Shown piece by piece: positions 5,765-64,000 of a stretch of DNA of 64,000 nt. This DNA is from a bacterium (GTDB lineage Bacteria > Electryoneota > Electryoneia > Electryoneales > Electryoneaceae). Where the stretch lies: assembly GCA_963669175.1 (NCBI GenBank), contig OY769902.1, forward strand, positions 841,348-905,347, given 5' to 3'. How positions within the stretch are numbered: the stretch's first letter is position 1; the number at the start of each line of letters is the position of its first letter. The notes beneath the pieces were generated by a model. That model saw only the letters and a list, made by a program, of their open reading frames with translations, was not told the origin of the DNA and searched no databases. The position numbers were made by a program, and so were the translations under genes.

Positions 5765-6246
5765 TATATTAGCTGAGCTGTTCAGGTTGTAGTAAGGAAG
5801 GGATAGAAATAAACGTAACAGAGGTTTGTCCTGTTATAGTGTTGCTCAAACAATATATCCCATCATGTCATTCCCGGCCTTATGCGCCGAGGCGTATTGA
5901 ACGGGGATCTCGTTGTTTTTCTATTTCATGGGATAATGTTTATACAACCATAGTCGTTCCCGAAAGTCTTTTCCGTTTCAGGGTAACGGTAGTTACTTTC
6001 AGGCACAAAACATTTGTTCTGTATAGAGTTTGACTCTCTCTTATTGCTCTCTTTCGAAAACATATTTTGTTGTTTTAGCAGGCTTTAGCCTGCTCTTCTT
6101 AGCACCCGGCTTCAGCCGGGGTGAGAAGATGCAAACAACATTCTGAGCACGCTTTAGCATGCTTGCCTGGTATAAATCCTGATTCCGGAAAGCACCCTGA
6201 AGGGCGCTCACCACTTCTTTAGCACAACGAACACCCCGGCTGAAGC

Positions 6247-7118
6247 CCTGTCTCATACCCACATCTTCTGAAAGCTGTATCAGTAAAAGAGTTGTGGACA
6301 TAGCATTTTTAGAATCCCGGCGGGATTCCCTATTTTAGCATAGTGTACAGGCCGTCTGTTTGGCCTGTACACTATGTCAGGTATTCTAACGAATAATCAA
6401 CCCTGGAAGGGTTGCATAATACGCGATTCATATTAGTACGTTCAATAAATACAGGAAATAACGCATTTTATATTCTATACAAACCAATTGGGTGTAAATT
6501 ATACGTTATGCAACCCTTCCAGGGTTGAGATAAGGTTTGATCTTTTTCGTAGGGTAGACGCTAACCCGAATATTTCATGAACGGAACATGGATATTCATC
6601 TTAACACAGTTCATATCAACACAATACAACTGATTCATACAGCATTTTTCAGGGGACAGTTTGCTCCGGTATCCCTTTGCGTGTCTATTCCCTGTTTCGC
6701 TGGCAAAATAGGCTGAGAATCGGCAACCGCCCCGGCAGGGGCAACCTGTATTAGCCCCGGGCAGCCGCCGTCAGTTTGGCGGCTACCCGGGGAGATAATG
6801 CGCATCATATATTTACTCCGGAAGGAGTAACCTGATAATTATCAAAAGTATACAGTGGAAATATTCAGGCAACCCGCTGCCGGGGTTGGCAAGTAGCGTA
6901 CATCCTATTCCCACCGTGAGCGCCAAACAGACGGCGCTGGACGGTGGGCTAATACAGAGAACCACTGCCGTGGTTCTTGTACTGGCCATTCCATCAAATA
7001 CCAAATTTGAAATTGCATTGGTGAAATATTCGGGCTAAACAGACAGCGTCAACCCTACGCTAAAATATACCACCCCCTCTGGGGTGGCAGAAACACGAAG
7101 ATGTGAGCAAGAGACAGG
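6247..7118. repeat. MITE-E (TIR CCTGTCTCWTACCCACATCTTC) inserted into a MITE-C hairpin; itself carries MITE-D
   Basis: Ends 6247-6268 and 7097-7118 are inverted repeats. An uninterrupted 403-bp copy is at 63004-63406. Flanked by duplicated GCTGAAGCC from the target hairpin. Confidence 0.5.
6565..7028. repeat. MITE-D (464 bp, perfect 13-bp TIR CCCGAATATTTCA, 4-bp TSD CTAA)
   Basis: TIR 6565-6577 versus 7016-7028. CTAA sits on both sides (6561-6564, 7029-7032). Inserted in the loop of hairpin CGTAGGGTAGACGCTAAACAGACAGCGTCAACCCTACG, which is intact at 63305-63342. Confidence 0.65.
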
Positions 7119-7224
7119 GCTGAAGCCGGGTGCTAAAAAGAGCCTGCTAAAGCAGGCTGATAACTATTCGAATCAGCAAAAACTTTCGGGAACGACTATA
7201 CAATAGTGCAATACGGAAACGGGG

Positions 7225-13344: not shown

Positions 13345-13392
13345 TGGTAGCGCGTACGGGAATCGAACCCGTGTTTCCGGCGTGAGAGGCCA
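13345..13392 (-). other. 48-bp duplicate of tRNA-Glu 3' portion (anticodon stem to CCA): attachment-site repeat
   Basis: Identical to 20586-20633. Not a complete tRNA. Confidence 0.85.
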
Positions 13393-20585: not shown

Positions 20586-20660
20586 TGGTAGCGCGTACGG
20601 GAATCGAACCCGTGTTTCCGGCGTGAGAGGCCAGCGTCCTGACCGCTGAACGAACGCGCC
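20586..20660 (-). tRNA. tRNA-Glu (anticodon CUC), 75 nt with encoded CCA
   Basis: Manually folded. Acceptor GGCGCGU/ACGCGCU, D-arm GUUC/GGAC, anticodon stem CUGGC/GCCGG with loop CUCUCAC, T-arm ACGGG-UUCGAUU-CCCGU. Confidence 0.85.
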
Positions 20661-20761
20661 ATAGTGGAGTCAAAAATACATGCTTGATGACAGTAAATCA
20701 ACCGCTTCGCTCTGGCGAGAGACTCTCTCTCCTGAGTTTGAAAGTTGGCAAGTTTGAAAGT

Positions 20762-21103
20762 TGAAAAGTTAGGCTGCTCACAAGAATTTGTACATACAAT
20801 CGACGAGCACGTTTCGTCAGGTCTTGACACGATACCTTTTTCTTGTTTTTTACCGCAATTGCAGACACCTGTCCGACTTTACGCCTGCAATTTTACATGA
20901 TAGTTCGTCGTCAGGCATCGTGTTATAACCTGACGACTGCGAGAATGCTGATATCGGTGGCAGGTCACAACGCGACAAAAACAGGGCGAGAGGCGGTTTC
21001 TGTATCATCGTTATTCAGGAAAACATTGCTAAAGCCGAAGACAGAATGTCGCGTCAAGACCTGCCACAACATTGCCCGGATGCACAAATTCTTGTGAGGA
21101 ACC
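20762..21103. repeat. MITE-A complete copy (342 bp, TIR CTCACAAGAATTTGT, 8-bp TSD AAAAGTTA)
   Basis: Imperfect ~50-bp TIRs. TSD at 20754-20761 and 21104-21111. Inserted inside an array of GAAAGTT octamers. Confidence 0.65.
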
Positions 21104-21400
21104 AAAAGTTAGAAAGTTCAAAAGTTACCTATCCTTATCGTCCTACTACCTGAAAAATTGTTACCTTCCCGACTTGCTGCCAGATATTGTTATTCTGCGA
21201 AACTTCTCTTCCATAACATTCCCCTGTTTTGGAATCAGAGAACATCACAGGCAAATCGGGCCATGCCTCACTGGAGTTGGAAAGTTACAAAGCTTGAAAG
21301 TTCTAAAGTTATTTGAATGATTGCATAGAATACGGTCATAAATCAGGTTTCAGACATGGCATAATGTCAGTAACCATTCACTCTTTTCATCATTCTTTCA

Positions 21401-21440
21401 TCCTTGACATCCTTACTATCCTGTTCATCCTGTAAATTCT
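21401..21440 (+). promoter_or_regulatory. conserved 40-bp motif TTGACATCCT..CATCCTGTAAAT (promoter-like), copy 1
   Basis: Near-identical to 53448-53490 upstream of ribD. Contains TTGACA. Confidence 0.25.
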
Positions 21441-21480
21441 TGTGCAACGTCCGGAATTACTAATTCCTCATTTCTAATTC

Positions 21481-22248
21481 CTAATTGTTTTTCGCCGGTG
21501 GATTCGCCCAGTTTTCCGGTGGTTCGGTGGCGAATTTCGGGGTCCAGTGCGGCGCTTTGTTCAGCCATTTGCAGACAATGATATACACGGTCTGGAAGAT
21601 CAGCGTCCAGTCGTAGATAAAGCTCATGTTCCGGACATAGTGCATATCGGCCAGCAGTTTGGGACGCAACAGGTAACGCACGTAATACTCTTCCGGGTTC
21701 ATATCGTCGGGCGGTTCGAGATGCTCATGGAACACGTAATACAGCAGGTTCCCGGTGCAGGTCAGGCCGGGACGCGCATCGAACAGTTCACGATATTCAT
21801 CGGTGTAGTGATCTTCCACGATATTCACCGATTCTGGACGCGGACCAACGACTGACATATCGCCACGGATAATGTTCCACAGTTGTGGGAGTTCATCAAT
21901 CTTGGTAGCGCGAAGCAGTTTGCCGATGGGAGTGATGCGTGAATCATGCCCTGCGGTAATGGTGGCGTGTTTATCGGCATCGACCACCATGGTGCGGAAT
22001 TTTAAAGTATCGAATATTTCACCGTGTGTGCCGATACGTGGGGCGTGATACAATACCGGCCCTTTCGAGGTTAGTTTGATTGCGATAACAGCCACTCCCA
22101 TAACCGGGCTCAGCACGACCAACGCCAGACCGGCGAGACATGTGTCCATGACACGCTTGACCGGTGCGTAATAACGTCCGCGCAAAAGCAACAGGGCGCC
22201 TACCAGACCCCCAGCGCCAGCCCACCACCCCCAAGAACTTCTTTTCAT
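21481..22248 (-). CDS. polyprenyl-phosphate sugar transferase (bacterial sugar transferase / WbaP-type C-terminal domain)
   Basis: 255 aa. N-terminal TM, then the VVGPRPE signature (MSVVGPRPESVN). Confidence 0.8.
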   Translation of the reverse strand: MKRSSWGWWAGAGGLVGALLLLRGRYYAPVKRVMDTCLAGLALVVLSPVMGVAVIAIKLTSKGPVLYHAPRIGTHGEIFDTLKFRTMVVDADKHATITAGHDSRITPIGKLLRATKIDELPQLWNIIRGDMSVVGPRPESVNIVEDHYTDEYRELFDARPGLTCTGNLLYYVFHEHLEPPDDMNPEEYYVRYLLRPKLLADMHYVRNMSFIYDWTLIFQTVYIIVCKWLNKAPHWTPKFATEPPENWANPPAKNN

Positions 22249-52120: not shown

Positions 52121-52715
52121 GTCCTGCCATCCTTTCGTCGACCCTCTCGCACGAAATCAAGATTTCGTGAAACGATTCACAAACTTTCCAAAAAAAAATC
52201 AAACACCTTTTCTCGCGTTTTCACACGAAAAGAAGACAAAAAGGCAGACGAAGGCCCGAGATTGACCGCCGCAGTCAACCCCCTGTTTCGCAACCATTTT
52301 ATCCCCTTAAAAAGTTAGGAGTAATCAAAATTCCTGATCAAGGGGCTGAGAGTAGGAATATGTTAGGTTTATATAACAACAACACTACACCAACACTTCA
52401 AAAGATTTTGTTATTTACTGTTTATCAAAAGTTTGAATTTTTCTGGGTGATTTGGGAATAGGGGATTATTGTACCAAAACAGGCTAATTGTTAGGGGGTT
52501 CTAATTCTCAATAATTACGTCTGGATTTTTTTTGCCGGTTTTGGTGGGGGAATAACGTGAGAAAATGTTGGGGGCCTCTTACTTTTGGTTGTGGTTTTCG
52601 AATTCTTGATTCTGAGGCTGTGGAAAATAGAGCCTTCGAAAACCAGTGGAAACAAGCATCTGCCTCTTGTAGCGAGCCTGCAACTGGCTCTCGGCAATCG
52701 TGAGCCGTATATTAG

Positions 52716-53064
52716 CCGAAGTCTTCGGGGCCTGGTGCAATTCCAGACCGGCGGTGAGAGTCCGCGACTCCCGGGATAGCCTGTGAAAGAACAGCGGGTT
52801 AGAGGTCAGACAACATGAGCCTGCTACCCAGTTCTGAGGCGTTTCGGGACTGAACCGGTGAGATTCCGGTACCGACGGTGAAAGTCCGGATGGGAGAAGG
52901 CGGACCGGCGAAAGCCGGATACAAGCATGAGCGGGGGCGGCTGTATGCCGATCTCCCGAAACCACGTCCGCGTACGGATTAACGTCTGTATGGCCGGGTG
53001 TGCATGCGTTGCCATGACCCCTACGCCCCGACGGTTGTAAAACCGCAGGGGCTTTCTGTTTTTA
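52716..53064 (+). ncRNA. FMN riboswitch (RFN element) with downstream intrinsic terminator
   Basis: Aptamer 52718-52900 matches the RFN consensus: CUUCGGGGC...GGUGCAAUUCCAGACCGGCGGUGAGAGUCCGCGAC...GGUGAGAUUCCGGUACCGACGGUGAAAGUCCGGAUGGGAGAAGG. Terminator GCCCC...GGGGC + UUUCUGUUUUU at 53024-53062. Confidence 0.8.
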
Positions 53065-53154
53065 GCCCTTTAAGTTGGAAAGTTATAGATTAGAAAATTA
53101 TCAAGTTAATGCGTTATTGTGGTTCCGGAAAGTTTTACTGATTAGAAGGCAATT

Positions 53155-53357
53155 AGCCTGCTTCAGCAGGCTCCTCTTAGCACCCGGCTTTAGCCGGGTG
53201 GCTGGGGATAACAGAAGCTATGAGCGCGCTTTAGCGTGCTTCAGTGTCATAGAATCTATACAAATCCAGAAAGCACCCTGAAGGGCGCTCGAGTCCTTGT
53301 TGTCCTTGTTCCCCCGGCTAAAGCCGGGGGCTAAGAGGAGCAGGCTAAAGCCTGCTA
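53155..53357. repeat. MITE-C compact copy (about 200 bp) between riboswitch and ribD
   Basis: Same stacked hairpins as 6074-6240/7119-7158 (AGCCTGCTTCAGCAGGCT, AGCACCCGGCTTTAGCCGGGTG, GCGCGCTTTAGCGTGC, AGCACCCTGAAGGGCGCT ... CCCCGGCTAAAGCCGGGGG, AGCAGGCTAAAGCCTGCT). Confidence 0.6.
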
Positions 53358-53447
53358 ACAAAAATGAATATAAATTTTCGAAAGAGTGCAATCCGGGAAA
53401 ATCAGACGCTATACAAGACAATGTAAGTTCTTCATCAGAATGTTTTT

Positions 53448-53490
53448 ATCCTTGACATCCTGATCATCCTTTACATCCTGTAAATGGAAC
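53448..53490 (+). promoter_or_regulatory. conserved 40-bp TTGACATCCT..CATCCTGTAAAT motif, copy 2, 60 bp upstream of ribD
   Basis: Near-identical to 21401-21440. Candidate promoter for the rib operon downstream of the MITE. Confidence 0.3.
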
Positions 53491-53548
53491 AGATACAGGC
53501 AGTAAATGCAACAGATACAGGCAACGACAGCAAACAACATACAGGCTT

Positions 53549-54661
53549 ATGTCTACATTCAGCGAACAAGATCACAGCATGATGCGTCGGGCGTTACGGT
53601 TGGCCAGGCGTGGACGTAGCTGGGTTGCGCCGAACCCGATGGTCGGAGCGGTGGTGGTGCGTGATGGTGAAATTGTGGGCGAGGGGTATCACCAGCGGTT
53701 CGGCGGTCCTCACGCCGAAGTGCATGCCTTGGAAAATGCCGGGGAGCGGGCGAAAGGCGCTGACTTGTATGTCACCCTGGAGCCTTGCTGCCATTTCGGG
53801 AAGACGCCACCATGCTCCAACCTGGTGATTGAAAAAGGGATCAAACGTGTTTTCGCGGCCATTGTGGACCCGAATCCATTGGTCAACGGTCGCGGATTGG
53901 AGCAGCTACGTAGCGCCGGGCTGGAGGTTCATGTCGGTCTGGAAACGGAGCAGGCGCGTGCCCTGAACGAATTTTACCTGAAGAAAGCCGCCACCGGGAA
54001 GCCGTGGGTCACTCTGAAGCTGGCCCAGACATTGGATGGCCGCATCGCCACACGTACCGGGCACAGTCAGTGGATCACCGGTCCGAAAGCGCGTCAGATG
54101 GGCCATGCGCTGCGTGCCATGCACGACGCTATCCTGGTCGGCGCCGGGACAGTGCATGCGGACGATCCCACGCTCAATGTTCGTCACGTTCGCGGACGTA
54201 ATCCCATCCGTATCGTCCTGGACACCAAGTGCGGCTTGCAGGAAAACTGCACCCTGTTGAACTCACCGGACATCGCCCCTACCTGGATTATCGCGTCAGA
54301 CAGATGCAAGAATCTTCCCGACTGGGACACTCGTGATCACGTCAGCATCCTGCGTGTGCCGGAAGATGACGAGGGCACGATTGACCTGCATGAGCTGATG
54401 AGTATCCTGGGGCGGCGTGGGGTGAGTTCCATCCTGGTCGAAGGGGGACGTCACATCTGGACACGATTCCTCGAAGAAGGCCTGGTAGACAAAATCGAAG
54501 CCTTTATTGCGCCGATGATCATGGGCGAAGGACTGGAAGCGATTGGCGATCTGGGCGTATTGAAGATTCCGGATGCTGTGAAACTGGATGATTTCCGCTG
54601 GCGCAGGGTTGGAACGGATTTACATGTGGTGGCCAAGGTTCACCCGCATTGGAGGCCGTAA
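53549..54661 (+). CDS. ribD: bifunctional riboflavin biosynthesis deaminase/reductase RibD
   Basis: CMP/dCMP deaminase zinc motif HAEVHAL...PCCHFGKTPPC, then a RibD C-terminal reductase domain. Confidence 0.9.
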   Translation: MSTFSEQDHSMMRRALRLARRGRSWVAPNPMVGAVVVRDGEIVGEGYHQRFGGPHAEVHALENAGERAKGADLYVTLEPCCHFGKTPPCSNLVIEKGIKRVFAAIVDPNPLVNGRGLEQLRSAGLEVHVGLETEQARALNEFYLKKAATGKPWVTLKLAQTLDGRIATRTGHSQWITGPKARQMGHALRAMHDAILVGAGTVHADDPTLNVRHVRGRNPIRIVLDTKCGLQENCTLLNSPDIAPTWIIASDRCKNLPDWDTRDHVSILRVPEDDEGTIDLHELMSILGRRGVSSILVEGGRHIWTRFLEEGLVDKIEAFIAPMIMGEGLEAIGDLGVLKIPDAVKLDDFRWRRVGTDLHVVAKVHPHWRP

Positions 54662-55317
54662 TGTTTACCGGACTGGTGGAAGAAGTCGGCACAATTCGCA
54701 TGATGCGCCGCCGTGGGGACGGAGCTATCCTCACCATAGAAGCTCGCAGGGTGCTGGAAGATGTACAAAAGGGCGACAGCATCGCTATTGCCGGGGTTTG
54801 TCAGACTGTCGTGCATTTCCAGCCGGGCTGGTTCCAGGTGGAAGCGGTGAAGGAGACGCTTGAACGGACACGTTTTGCCGAGTGGAGCCGTGGGCAGAAG
54901 GTCAACCTGGAACGCGCCATGCGTCCCATCGACCGGCTGGGCGGACACCTGGTGCAGGGGCATGTAGACGGTATGGCGGAGGTAGCGGGCATCAAACGCC
55001 TGGAGAGTTCTCACCGCCTGACCCTCCGTCCGCTTAATGGTGACATGACCTATATCGTGGAAAAAGGTTCGATCTGCCTGGATGGGATCAGCCTTACGGT
55101 AGCGTCACTGACTGACAGCACATTTGATGTGGAAATTATTCCGCATACCTGGGAAGCTACCACGCTGCACCTGCTGAAGGGTGGCGACAAGATTCACCTG
55201 GAGTGGGATGTCATCGCCAAATATGTGTACAAGATGCTACATGCTTTCAAAAGTGGAACAGACAAGAAAGAATCCGGCGGCCTGACTGCGGAAAAGTTGA
55301 TGGAATATGGATTCTAA
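54661..55317 (+). CDS. ribE: riboflavin synthase alpha chain
   Basis: MFTGLVEEVGTI... two lumazine-binding repeats. Start overlaps the ribD stop (TAATG). Confidence 0.9.
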   Translation: MFTGLVEEVGTIRMMRRRGDGAILTIEARRVLEDVQKGDSIAIAGVCQTVVHFQPGWFQVEAVKETLERTRFAEWSRGQKVNLERAMRPIDRLGGHLVQGHVDGMAEVAGIKRLESSHRLTLRPLNGDMTYIVEKGSICLDGISLTVASLTDSTFDVEIIPHTWEATTLHLLKGGDKIHLEWDVIAKYVYKMLHAFKSGTDKKESGGLTAEKLMEYGF

Positions 55318-55385
55318 GTAAAGAAGGTAAAAAAAGTAAAGAAGGTGATAGAGTGTGACAGAATATTTTAAAGAGGGGTAATAGC

Positions 55386-55751
55386 ATGACTACGAAATAC
55401 AAGAGCTTTGAAGAGTTGGAAATATGGCAAAAGTGATGCAGGTTGGCAGCGGATATTTACAGGGAAACCAAAGAAGGTTCCTGGAAAAATGATTATTCAT
55501 TACGTGACCAAATCAGGAGAAGCGCAGTATCAATTCCATCCAATATTGCAGAAGGGTATGAACGAAACAGCAGAAAAGAGTTTATCCGTTTCTTGAAAAT
55601 AGCAAAAGCATCATGTGGAGAATTTCGAACACAATTATATATAGCAAAAGCGATAGGATATATGAATAAGGAGACTTTTGATAAGTTTCACGAATCATCA
55701 AGAAAAGTCAGCGCAATGATCCAATCTTTAATAAATAGTATCAGAGATTGA
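55386..55751 (+). pseudogene. four-helix-bundle protein (TIGR02436 / Avd-like / 23S rRNA intervening-sequence protein family) interrupted by in-frame TGA at codon 17
   Basis: MTTKYKSFEELEIWQK-TGA-CRLAADIYRE... TGA (55434-55436) replaces the Gly codon present in the intact paralog at 57735. Otherwise full-length. Flanked by inverted GTAAAGAAGGTAAAAAAAG-type repeats. Confidence 0.55.
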
Positions 55752-55866
55752 AGACTTGGATATTCAAGATGTTACGAACAACATTCAGAAGCATTAAGAG
55801 GTTTTTACTTTCTTTACCTTTTTTACGTTTTTTACTTTTTTCACTTATCCATAAGGAGAAACAGTC

Positions 55867-57069: not shown

Positions 57070-57139
57070 AAGTGAAAAAAGTGAAAAAAGTGGGCAGTGA
57101 AAAAAGAGCTTGAGTGGAAGCACTCTCAACTCTGACAGA

Positions 57140-57396
57140 CTAGTGGACCATTGCACCTGATATGAGTTGTTCTGCTTGTTTTTGATGAGTCGATTTCAAG
57201 GCAGTTTCACGAAATCATAGTGGTTCTATTCTGAGTAAAACTAACGCAGAAATCGGCCATCAAAAACAAGCCCTAAGGGAGCGCGCGCTTTGCCCCATGA
57301 CTGCGTTGCTTTCCCTTGAAATAGCCCGCTATGTCTGTAGTCAAGCACCTTGTCCTGAGGTAAAGTGCGCAGCTCAGAAAACATCATAGCAGGTGC
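57140..57396. repeat. 257-bp element bounded by 17-bp inverted repeat AGTGGACCATTGCACCTG with nested inner palindromes
   Basis: Outer IR 57140-57157 / 57380-57396. Inner IR CTTGTTTTTGATG / CATCAAAAACAAG. Sits in the ribBA-ribH spacer next to GTGAAAAAAG repeats. Confidence 0.4.
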
Positions 57397-57734
57397 AATG
57401 GTCCACAAGCACGAAAACGGGAAACATGATAAAAGAAAACCAATAGAGAGTTAATGAAAACCAAGAATTATAAAGTGTTGGACATTTTGAGGTGAATATA
57501 AGCATTAGTGGTTGATTTTTGTGGCGTTGCTGGTAAGCCGGATTGGGTCAAAGGTTTTGTCTGGCGTGATTACCTGCATAAAAGCGCAGTATCCATTCAT
57601 TCGATTTTGGAAGCATAGAGTTTTCTGCCATGATTCAGTCGCTAATAATACATTTATCGAGAGAGAATTAGTAAAGCAGTTTCTTTTTTCACTTTTTTCA
57701 CTGTCAACTTTTTTCACTTTAGCAGGAGAACCGT

Positions 57735-58100
57735 ATGGCTACCAAGAAATTTGAAGAGTTGGATATCTGGAAGCGGGGATGCAGGTTGGCTGTTGATCTT
57801 TACGGCCTGACAGGAAAAGGGAATTGGGCAAAAGATTTTTCACTTCGAGACCAGGTCAGACGATGCGCAGTGTCTGTTCCGTCCAATGTTGCGGAAGGAT
57901 TTGAACGTGGTGGAGTGAACGAATTCCGTCGTTTTCTCCGTATCGCCAAGGGATCATGTGGCGAACTTCGTACCCAACTGTATATAGCACAGGCAATCGA
58001 CTATATTTCCAAACCTGATATGGATCCTATTGTTCAGGAAACACGTGAAATCAGCGCCATGATTCAATCGCTAATAACCCATTTATCGAAAGAGAGTTAG
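57735..58100 (+). CDS. four-helix-bundle protein (TIGR02436 / Avd-like family), intact
   Basis: 121 aa. MATKKFEELDIWKRGCRLAVDLY...SNVAEGFERG...FLRIAKGSCGELRTQLYIA. Flanked by a 105-bp direct repeat (57618-57722 = 58049-58153) that includes a 3' gene-end remnant upstream. Confidence 0.8.
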   Translation: MATKKFEELDIWKRGCRLAVDLYGLTGKGNWAKDFSLRDQVRRCAVSVPSNVAEGFERGGVNEFRRFLRIAKGSCGELRTQLYIAQAIDYISKPDMDPIVQETREISAMIQSLITHLSKES

Positions 58101-58163
58101 CAATACGGTTTCCTTTTTCACTTTTTTCACTGTCTACTTTTTTCACTCCAACAAGGGGTTATT

Positions 58164-62357: not shown

Positions 62358-62578
62358 TATGTTCATTCAAAGCAGAAAGTATCCCGCCACTTCGAGGTGA
62401 ATTCTCACCACAACATGAACTGGATTCATGTATACACATTGTTCGCTAGCCCGAATATTTCATGAACAAAACATGGATAATCATCTTAACACATTTCATA
62501 TCAGCACAATACAACTGATTCATACAGCATTTTGCAGGGTACAGTTTGCTCCGGTATCCCTTTGCGTGTTTATTCCTT

Positions 62579-62912
62579 GGGCTGCTCACAAGAATTTGTG
62601 CATATTATCGACGAGCACGTTTCGTCAGGTCTTGACGTGATGCCTTTTTCTTGTTTTTCTCCGTAATTTCAGACATCTGTCCGACTTCACACCTGCTATT
62701 TCGCATGATAGATCGTCGTCAGGCATCACGTTGTGACCTGACGACAGCGAGAGTGCTGATACAGGTGGCAGGTCACAACGCGACAATAACAGTACGAGAG
62801 GTGGTTTCAGTATCATCGTGTATTCGGGAAAACATCGCGAAAGCCGAAAACGGAAAGTCGCGTCAAGACCTGCCACAACTTTGCCCGAATGCACAAATTC
62901 TTGTGAGGAACC
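62579..62912. repeat. MITE-A complete copy nested in MITE-D (7-bp TSD ATTCCTT)
   Basis: TIRs CTCACAAGAATTTGTGCAT / GCACAAATTCTTGTGAGG. Flanking ATTCCTT at 62572-62578 and 62913-62919. Uninterrupted target sequence visible at 6690-6700. Confidence 0.65.
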
Positions 62913-63003
62913 ATTCCTTGTTTCGCTGACAAACTGAAGCTGAGTTTCGGAAACCGCCCCGGAAGGGGCAATCTGTATTAGCCCAGGGCGGCCGCCGTTA
63001 GTT

Positions 63004-63406
63004 CTGTCTCTTACCCACATCTTCTGAAAGCTGTATCAGTAAAAGAGTTGTGGACATAGCATTTTTAGAATCCCGGCGGGATTCCCTATTTTAGCATAGT
63101 GTACAGGCCGTCTGTTTGGCCTGTACACTATGTCAGGTATTCTAACGAATAATCAACCCTGGAAGGGTTGCATAATACGCGATTCATATTAGTACGTTCA
63201 ATAAATACAGGAAATAACGCATTTTATATTCTATACAAACCAATTGGGTGTAAATTATACGTTATGCAACCCTTCCAGGGTTGAGATAAGGTTTGATCTT
63301 TTTCGTAGGGTAGACGCTAAACAGACAGCGTCAACCCTACGCTAAAATATACCACCCCCTCTGGGGTGGCAGAAACACGAAGATGTGAGCAAGAGACAGG
63401 CCGTTA
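63004..63406. repeat. MITE-E uninterrupted copy (403 bp) nested in MITE-D
   Basis: TIR CTGTCTCTTACCCACATCTTC / GAAGATGTGAGCAAGAGACAG. Contains intact hairpins with AAACAGAC / GTCTGTTT loops. Confidence 0.55.
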
Positions 63407-64000
63407 GTTGGCGGCTACCTTGGGAGATGAATCCCACTACTATTTACTCCGGCAGGAGTAACCTGAATATTATTATTGGTATACAGTTTGGATTCTTAGG
63501 CAACCACTGTCGGGGTTGGCAGGTAGTCTACACCCTTTTCCCACCGTGAGCGCCAAACAGACTGGAGCTGGACGGTGGGTTTATTCAGGGAACCACTGCC
63601 GTGGTTCTTATCCCGCCCGTTCCATCAAGTATCACATGTGAAAGTGCCAGTCGTGAAATATCCGGGCCAGTAACACCATGTTTCGTACATAGACGAAACA
63701 GCGGGACCTTCCTGATAGCATAGTGATGTAGTAAAGAACCCACCCATCACCCAGCCTGCGCACCAGATTCACAGGGTAAGCACCAGCTTCGCAGTTTTTC
63801 TTGGTACATATAGCTTTCAGGTTTCTCTTTCACAACACTGGAGCCCTGATTTACCTCTCTTGTTCACCTTCATGACAATGAAAATCTATTCGGGCAACAG
63901 GTGTCTGCTTAGCCTTATTGCCTACAAGCTAAAAAGAATTCTGAAACGATCGTAATACAGTCGAATTCCTTATCAGAAGAGGAATTGCATTTTCAATTGG

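Follow-up and report, generated by a model that had tools for sequence, protein, structure and literature searches.

An FMN riboswitch separated from ribD by repeat-derived DNA in a bacterium of the Electryoneaceae

Introduction

Small structured repeats have already been documented inside regulated bacterial leaders. In the trp operon of Streptococcus pneumoniae, a BOX element lies inside a tandem T-box leader, giving a compound 5' untranslated region that approaches 1 kb, and RNA sequencing (RNA-seq) indicated that regulation still works there (Croucher et al. 2011, PMC3049150). The Correia elements of Neisseria are MITEs (miniature inverted-repeat transposable elements) of ~100-200 bp with long terminal inverted repeats that have inserted between promoter and gene; they are co-transcribed in leaders, their hairpin is cut by RNase III, and their core can invert (PMC10969869). 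Here we analyze a further instance, in which the leader is that of a flavin mononucleotide (FMN) riboswitch. It lies in a 64,000-nucleotide (nt) stretch, hereafter the window, of contig OY769902.1 (GenBank assembly GCA_963669175.1, positions 841,348 to 905,347) from a bacterium of the Electryoneaceae. Positions below count from the first letter of the window and refer to the plus strand unless noted. An FMN aptamer (RFN element) and its terminator stand upstream of ribD in the rib operon, and repeat-derived DNA fills most of the distance between terminator and gene. In the literature that we searched, no MITE-like repeat is described between an FMN riboswitch terminator and its gene.

The locus has much in common with the ribD-type RFN leaders known from Bacillus subtilis, namely a full-length aptamer, an antiterminator/terminator platform, and a position upstream of ribD-ribE-ribBA-ribH. 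Unlike the usual RFN leaders, it has a terminator that lies 496 nt from the start codon rather than a few tens, repeat-derived DNA in between, and a 71-nt extension of helix P3. With the pneumococcal leader it shares a small interspersed structured repeat under riboswitch control, but the repeat family, the riboswitch class, and the phylum are all different, the repeat follows the terminator instead of standing between two aptamers, and regulation here is predicted from the sequence.

We read the locus, with moderate confidence, as a normal FMN "OFF" riboswitch that controls the rib operon by transcription attenuation and whose spacer has been colonized by lineage-specific small repeats. The parts themselves (an FMN riboswitch, an intrinsic terminator, and a repeat of the MITE or repetitive extragenic palindrome [REP] kind) are well known whichever reading is right. 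Their arrangement, however, makes the locus a natural test of foreign structured RNA being tolerated between the terminator of a riboswitch and the gene behind it. Should regulation still be working, the terminator-gene spacer tolerates the landing of small repeats, and the assignment of riboswitches to genes by distance must allow for it. If instead a promoter arose within the repeats, the locus would be a clear case of mobile DNA rewiring the metabolite control of a vitamin pathway.

Results and Discussion

The aptamer, its promoter, and its terminator

Five relatives served for comparison (L081, L082, L161, L162, and L163), with RibD proteins 58-61% identical to that of the window; one member of the RibD group at 58-62% identity is labelled Calditrichaeota. 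The five loci have the same gene order, ribD, ribE, and ribBA, followed by ribH and a PorZ-like gene where the locus reaches that far, and each has an FMN aptamer upstream of ribD (100-111 bits).

The aptamer of the window, at 52717-52905, matches Rfam family RF00050 with 94.9 bits (gathering score, 66.2; E, 1.3e-20) over the full model, from 1 to 138. An earlier note on this DNA had placed the aptamer at 52718-52900 and a terminator hairpin at 53024-53062, and our analysis recovers both with small changes to their limits. The core nucleotides of the six-helix junction are retained, P1 is closed by GUCUUC with GAAGGC (one G-U pair among them), and all columns that are identical across the aptamers of the five relatives are kept in the alignment. 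The variable P3 loop carries a 71-nt insertion, which folds as a regular extension of the P3 helix. As in flavin-gene leaders of this family, an expression platform follows, and no gene lies between the aptamer and ribD (53549-54661; Pfam RibD_C, 9.8e-51, plus a deaminase domain); the distance from the aptamer end to the ribD ATG, 643 nt, is atypical. On every criterion that the sequence could address, the riboswitch is thus a member of RF00050, a membership from which FMN binding and ligand-dependent termination are predicted. A permissive Rfam search of 52300-53700 returned, besides this aptamer, only a chance-level match to psRNA14 (E, 0.63).

In the relatives, the aptamer is preceded by a shared layout of TTGCAT, TTGCAC, or TTGCGC, a spacer of 17-18 nt, TATATT, and ~8 nt. 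The TATATT box is an invariant column in the alignment of the window with the five relatives, and the probable riboswitch promoter of the window is CTGGCT-18-TATATT (52684-52713), which scores 8/12 in a relaxed scan (at least 8/12 hexamer matches at a spacing of 16-19 nt). A better consensus match, TTGTTA-16-AATAAT, lies ~200 nt farther upstream at 52488-52515.

Between P1 and the terminator is a platform spacer of 119 nt (52906-53024), locally structured, with one hairpin directly following P1 (52905-52918) and others besides. The intrinsic terminator is the hairpin GCCCCGACGGUU-GUAA-AACCGCAGGGGC, whose stem spans 53025-53052 and which is followed directly by the U-tract UUUCUGUUUUU, ending at 53063. 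Because the stem has a 2x2 internal mismatch, a simple consensus scan did not detect this terminator. The hairpin nevertheless appears in every fold, its predicted stability (-19.8 kcal/mol) falls inside the range of the five homologous hairpins in the relatives (-15.5 to -23.1 kcal/mol), and it has the GC-rich stem and immediate U-tract expected of an intrinsic terminator. In the relatives, the terminator GCCCCGACGGT...AACCGTTGGGGC with its U-tract lies 60-180 nt after the aptamer, and that of the window aligns with it and is clearly homologous in sequence.

When the RNA was folded to just before the 3' strand of the terminator, leaving the 3' side of the aptamer free rather than blocked made a difference of ~13 kcal/mol. 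With that side free, P1 is open and the prediction pairs CCGGAUGGGAGAAGGCGG with the terminator 5' strand, which in these folds is a classical antiterminator arrangement. We also considered a relay in which pairing of GGGAGA with UCUCCC would release GGGGGCG for pairing with the terminator; with that pairing imposed, the predicted terminator stayed intact. Among the modeled structures, direct pairing of the aptamer 3' side with the terminator 5' strand fits better than the relay.

Repeats added between the terminator and ribD

The earlier note had proposed comparison with orthologous loci that lack the repeat, and the five relatives provide it. Their ribD genes start 24-55 nt after the terminator stem, compared to 496 nt in the window, and the added repeat DNA, ~450 nt in all, begins only after the U-tract. 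When 52121-53063 was searched against the rest of the window, no shared repeats were found beyond chance 12- to 16-mers. By this comparison, the repeats entered the stretch that follows the terminator and precedes ribD without touching the unit that comprises promoter, aptamer, and terminator, and the gap is long because small repeated elements filled the spacer. From the U-tract to the ribD ATG, these are an AT-rich stretch, a palindromic repeat unit, a 9-nt tandem array, and a 22-nt tandem repeat.

The AT-rich spacer (53064-53106) includes AAGTTGGAAAGTT, a 13-nt exact match to a site at 21275 that is not significant alone (E, 0.38); the GC content of 53064-53152 is 0.33. The palindromic core that follows, called MITE-C, measures 206 nt (53153-53358, no strand assigned). 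Its two arms (53153-53213 and 53298-53358) are 61 nt each and 79% complementary, and the core RNA folds at -126 kcal/mol (z = -11). A second copy of the core occupies 6075-7158, with ~870 nt of nested repeats inside, and its arms are 85-90% identical to those of the ribD leader. The unit common to both copies is wider than the core bounded by inverted repeats. In the ribD leader it extends over ~53107-53430, with a left flank (53107-53152) that matches the reverse complement of 7159-7213 (85% identity excluding gaps) and a right flank (53359-53430) that matches the reverse complement of ~5990-6074 (81% excluding gaps), so that the second copy of the whole unit is 5990-7213 on the minus strand. 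The compact MITE-C that the earlier note saw at 53155-53357 is thus a real palindrome that belongs to a larger repeat unit. The copy in the ribD leader is without the outer inverted repeat that bounds the copy at 6 kb.

As a small element with long terminal inverted repeats and no transposase gene, the 206-nt core has the anatomy of a MITE. Like a Correia core, it is inverted relative to its flanks between its two copies: the flanks match in reverse orientation, but 53153-53358 matches 6075-6247 better in direct orientation (score, 76 versus 60; identity, 88% versus 76%). Such a pattern points either to recombination between the arms, with inversion of the core, or to two independent insertions into a shared target. 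Unlike Correia elements, which have TA target duplications, IHF sites, and proven promoters, the window repeat showed none of these. The MITE-C ends have no target-site duplication, being flanked by CAATT/AACAA here and by TTATC/AAAAC at the other copy with no direct repeat, and the true ends are uncertain because the flanks are themselves homologous between copies.

Read directly from the sequence, the core consists of six REP-like GC-rich hairpins with 4-nt loops in the order A-B-C/C'-B'-A'. Such alternating short hairpins recall the REP clusters, or bacterial interspersed mosaic elements (BIMEs), of proteobacteria, and the unit looks as much like a REP/BIME cluster as like a MITE. Unlike a REP/BIME family, it has only two visible copies in the window, and no RAYT-type transposase turned up, none having been searched for. 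The arm pattern had no match in 160 fetched loci or in viral contigs. The hairpin that directly follows P1 (CCGGCGAAAGCCGG) is similar to hairpin B of the repeat (CCCGGCTAAAGCCGGG); the relatives have a hairpin of other sequence at that position, and the resemblance may be due to chance. The core holds no transposase gene but only short open reading frames (ORFs), not compared with protein families, that run through the repeat arms. The leader ORFs 53075-53281, 53297-53455, and 53218-53421 (minus strand) were dismissed as non-genes on the same ground.

After the right flank come the 9-nt array (53447-53485) and, immediately following it, a 22-nt tandem repeat of ~2.6 units that is A/C-rich and G-poor and runs to the ribD ATG (53472-53548; Tandem Repeats Finder extent, 53472-53546; score, 60-81). 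The next ORF with a family assignment after the terminator is ribD, whose start has only a weak AGG; the A/C-rich, G-poor composition of the last 100 nt may keep this start unstructured.

Probable attenuation through a long leader

In the reading that we prefer, transcription would start at the conserved TATATT promoter just upstream of the aptamer. With FMN bound, P1 would close and the terminator at 53025-53063 would form. Without FMN, the aptamer 3' side would pair with the 5' strand of the terminator, and the polymerase would read on through ~490 nt of repeat-derived leader into ribD. The palindromic core should not terminate these transcripts because no U-tract follows it. The read-through leader would carry the near-perfect hairpin of ~200 nt formed by the MITE-like core, a probable substrate for a double-strand-specific RNase; as a long duplex, it is a plausible substrate of RNase III in particular, as has been demonstrated with Correia elements (PMC10969869). 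By then the terminator would already have made its decision, which a cut in this duplex would not reverse. The earlier note had offered read-through transcripts with a structured MITE in their leader as an alternative to a new promoter, and of its two proposals this is the better supported, with the read-through itself a step that we infer.

Continued FMN-controlled attenuation is most likely because neither the aptamer core nor the antiterminator nor the terminator is disrupted. The age of the insertion also bears on this. It is probably not recent, since the repeat copies are only 81-90% identical and the outer inverted repeat has been lost here, and an aptamer no longer under selection would probably have changed at some of its ~90 invariant positions since then, an argument that we regard as suggestive.

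Several points weigh against this reading. The dating argument assumes that the divergence between copies arose after insertion, and it may predate insertion. The -35 box of the riboswitch promoter in the window is CTGGCT (3/6 matches); the TTGCAT-like box of the five relatives is absent at the right spacing, and a CTGCAA is displaced to 24 nt upstream of TATATT, as if the spacer had gained ~6 nt. A weak upstream promoter is a possible consequence, and it would favor a new promoter downstream. An untranslated leader of ~490 nt is also exposed to Rho-dependent termination. Finally, MITEs of other families carry outward-facing sigma-70 promoters (PMC10969869), and consensus scans of the kind that we used miss many real promoters.

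A more extreme consequence of the insertion would be that the riboswitch has been cut off from ribD altogether and makes only a terminated RNA of ~350 nt, either as a relic or as an FMN-sensing RNA that acts in trans. The distance to ribD, ~10-20 times that in the relatives, fits such an orphan, as does the possibility that the long structured leader blocks or destabilizes read-through transcripts. A relic, however, would be expected to lose conserved positions, and none has been lost; the antiterminator logic, which matters only if read-through has a consequence, is preserved; and no second target is evident. We consider a disconnected riboswitch very improbable.

The 9-nt array and the promoter question

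The earlier note had described a promoter-like motif of 40 bp before ribD that recurs at 21401. The recurrence is real, with 53448-53485 matching 21400-21437 at 87% identity over 38 nt, but the motif is not a single word. It is four 9-nt units in tandem, which in the ribD leader read TTTTTATCC TTGACATCC TGATCATCC TTTACATCC followed by TGTAAAT. The pattern CATCCTNNNCATCCT (CATCCTN3CATCCT) has six matches, all of them in the two array clusters, against 0.24 expected by chance. A search for more copies of the CATCCT array gave one unrelated match. An ORF of 32 codons (53485-53583) begins with an ATG in the last unit of the array and overlaps the ribD start out of frame, with no Shine-Dalgarno sequence by eye.

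A promoter in the inserted repeats, downstream of the terminator, would make ribD and the later genes partly or wholly independent of FMN, with the riboswitch adding a regulated component or nothing. One of the 9-nt units, TTGACATCC, contains a perfect TTGACA at 53452, and a TATAAA lies at 53370-53375, just outside the hairpin. A standard consensus scan of 53064-53548 found no promoter, however, and the relaxed scan of the same interval found one weak sigma-70-like site, at 53091-53120 and hence upstream of the hairpin, where ~2 are expected from the density across the window. The TTGACA at 53452 has no -10 partner at 16-19 nt (ATCCTG and similar words stand there), and no -35/-10 pair at that spacing exists anywhere in 53121-53548, thus at or after the array, even at 8/12 matches. 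Sigma-70 rules are a fair test here because the operon of the relatives uses a canonical -35/-10 promoter.

The context of the arrays points the same way. The copy at 21400-21437 lies just past the stop codon of a convergent sugar-transferase-like ORF on the minus strand (21481-22248), so that it faces the 3' end of that gene, and no plus-strand gene lies downstream of it. Analogous 9-nt arrays of the TTTAC/TTCAC type in the rib operon end 8-17 nt before the Shine-Dalgarno sequences of ribBA, of ribH, and of a gene for a 23S-rRNA-intervening-sequence protein (IVP), too close for a -10 box, a start site, and a leader to fit in between. Consequently, the earlier suggestion that the motif is a promoter finds no support in 53359-53548, where no -35/-10 pair is present, or in the second copy, which has no co-oriented gene downstream.

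The nearest RibD, 78% identical, bears on the same question from another side. It is encoded on a 2.5-kb contig, L001, in which no aptamer occurs within the 257 nt available upstream of ribD, where the contig ends. This joins the degenerate -35 box and the promoters of other MITE families in favor of a bypass; the lack of decay in the aptamer, the antiterminator, and the terminator speaks against it. Because promoter prediction from sequence is weak and the riboswitch -35 is degenerate, we keep uncoupling as a possibility, one that we consider unlikely. Judged by its repeat structure and setting, the CATCCT array is best seen as a repeat specific to this lineage rather than a promoter, and it may represent the old end of an insertion of the cassette type.

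We also examined whether AAGTTGGAAAGTT and the array could bound a single element, with 21275-21437 as its uninterrupted form, an empty site; only the ends align and the middle does not, so that 21275-21437 is no more than a candidate. The intergenic region around the second array (20735-21490) holds other tandem arrays, AGTTTGAAAGTTGAAA in 2.2 copies, AAAAGTTA in 3, and AATTCCT in 4.6, as well as a MITE with 43-nt inverted ends (20753-21122). Short tandem arrays seem to be common throughout the intergenic DNA of this genome.

IVP cassettes in the rib operon

Beyond the leader, the operon has the order ribD-ribE-(IVP)-ribBA-(IVP)-ribH, which matches that of L161 and L163. IVP genes (PF05635) have been inserted in both internal spacers in the orientation of the operon (55316-55846 and 57070-58147). 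The ends of these cassettes are inverted repeats of ~30 nt built from 9-nt units: AAGTAAAGAAGGTAAAAAAAGTAAAGAAGGT is 87% complementary to 55807-55837 in the first, and AGTGAAAAAAGTGGGCAGTGAAAAAAG pairs with 57692-57720 and 58121-58147 (93%) in the second. In each case the first arm comes after the stop codon of the rib gene ahead of the cassette, and the second arm ends 8-17 nt short of the Shine-Dalgarno sequence that comes next. The three IVP copies of the window all lie in rib operon spacers. One is intact; the first gene (55386-55751), probably a pseudogene, is interrupted by an in-frame TGA at 55434-55436, a position at which the intact copy encodes glycine; and 57454-57668 is a further decayed remnant. 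Such an arrangement is reminiscent of an intervening sequence of the rRNA type set in an mRNA operon, and it is more unusual than the riboswitch leader itself.

These cassettes suggest an origin for the array in the ribD leader. It could be a diverged counterpart of the TTTAC-type arrays that bracket the IVP cassettes, in which case it would mark the right end of an old insertion of the cassette type that reached the region upstream of ribD before this lineage and L001 diverged. A TTTAC/TTGAC head and the 9-nt period are common to the units TTTACATCC and TTGACATCC and to TTTACCTTT and TTTACGTTT. In L001, a TTTAC-type array (166-194) ends 63 nt before the ribD ATG and is followed by a 63-nt A/C-rich stretch; the array of the window likewise ends 63 nt before the ATG (53485 to 53549), with similar composition after it. 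Arrays of the TTTAC type occur, among the 163 fetched loci, in L001 only and, in the window, in the rib operon only. The two types of array nevertheless have low sequence similarity, no inverted partner array of AGGATG units lies upstream, the leader holds no IVP gene or remnant, and no IVP gene adjoins the copy at 21400. We regard this identity as possible, if somewhat doubtful.

A bolder proposal would make the 9-nt arrays the ends of an undescribed class of intervening cassette. Genes for IVP-type four-helix-bundle proteins would then have colonized every rib spacer, the leader in decayed form, and the paired arrays would be cut out of the RNA, in the way that RNase III removes rRNA intervening sequences, so that the riboswitch-controlled transcript would be processed into separate ribDE, ribBA, and ribH messages. 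We think that this scheme is improbable as a whole.

L001 has further repeats of its own. At 2036-2060, AAGTGAAAA is repeated 3.5 times right after the ribE stop codon, and runs of REP-like hairpins (GTCATTCCTGCGAAAGCAGGAATC) stand at both ends of the contig.

Other repeats in the window

Two features away from the operon also involve duplicated DNA. The tRNA-Glu(CUC) gene at 20586-20660 (minus strand) has an exact duplicate of its 3' 48 nt (20586-20633) 7.2 kb away, at 13345-13392, the pattern usually left by an element that has integrated into a tRNA gene. Nested in the copy of MITE-C at 6 kb is a composite of several repeat families (6248-7135) of ~0.9-1.2 kb, which recurs at 62444-63638. 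This composite includes a 300-nt stretch that is 100% identical between 6248-6547 and 63004-63303, an identity that points to recent movement or gene conversion.

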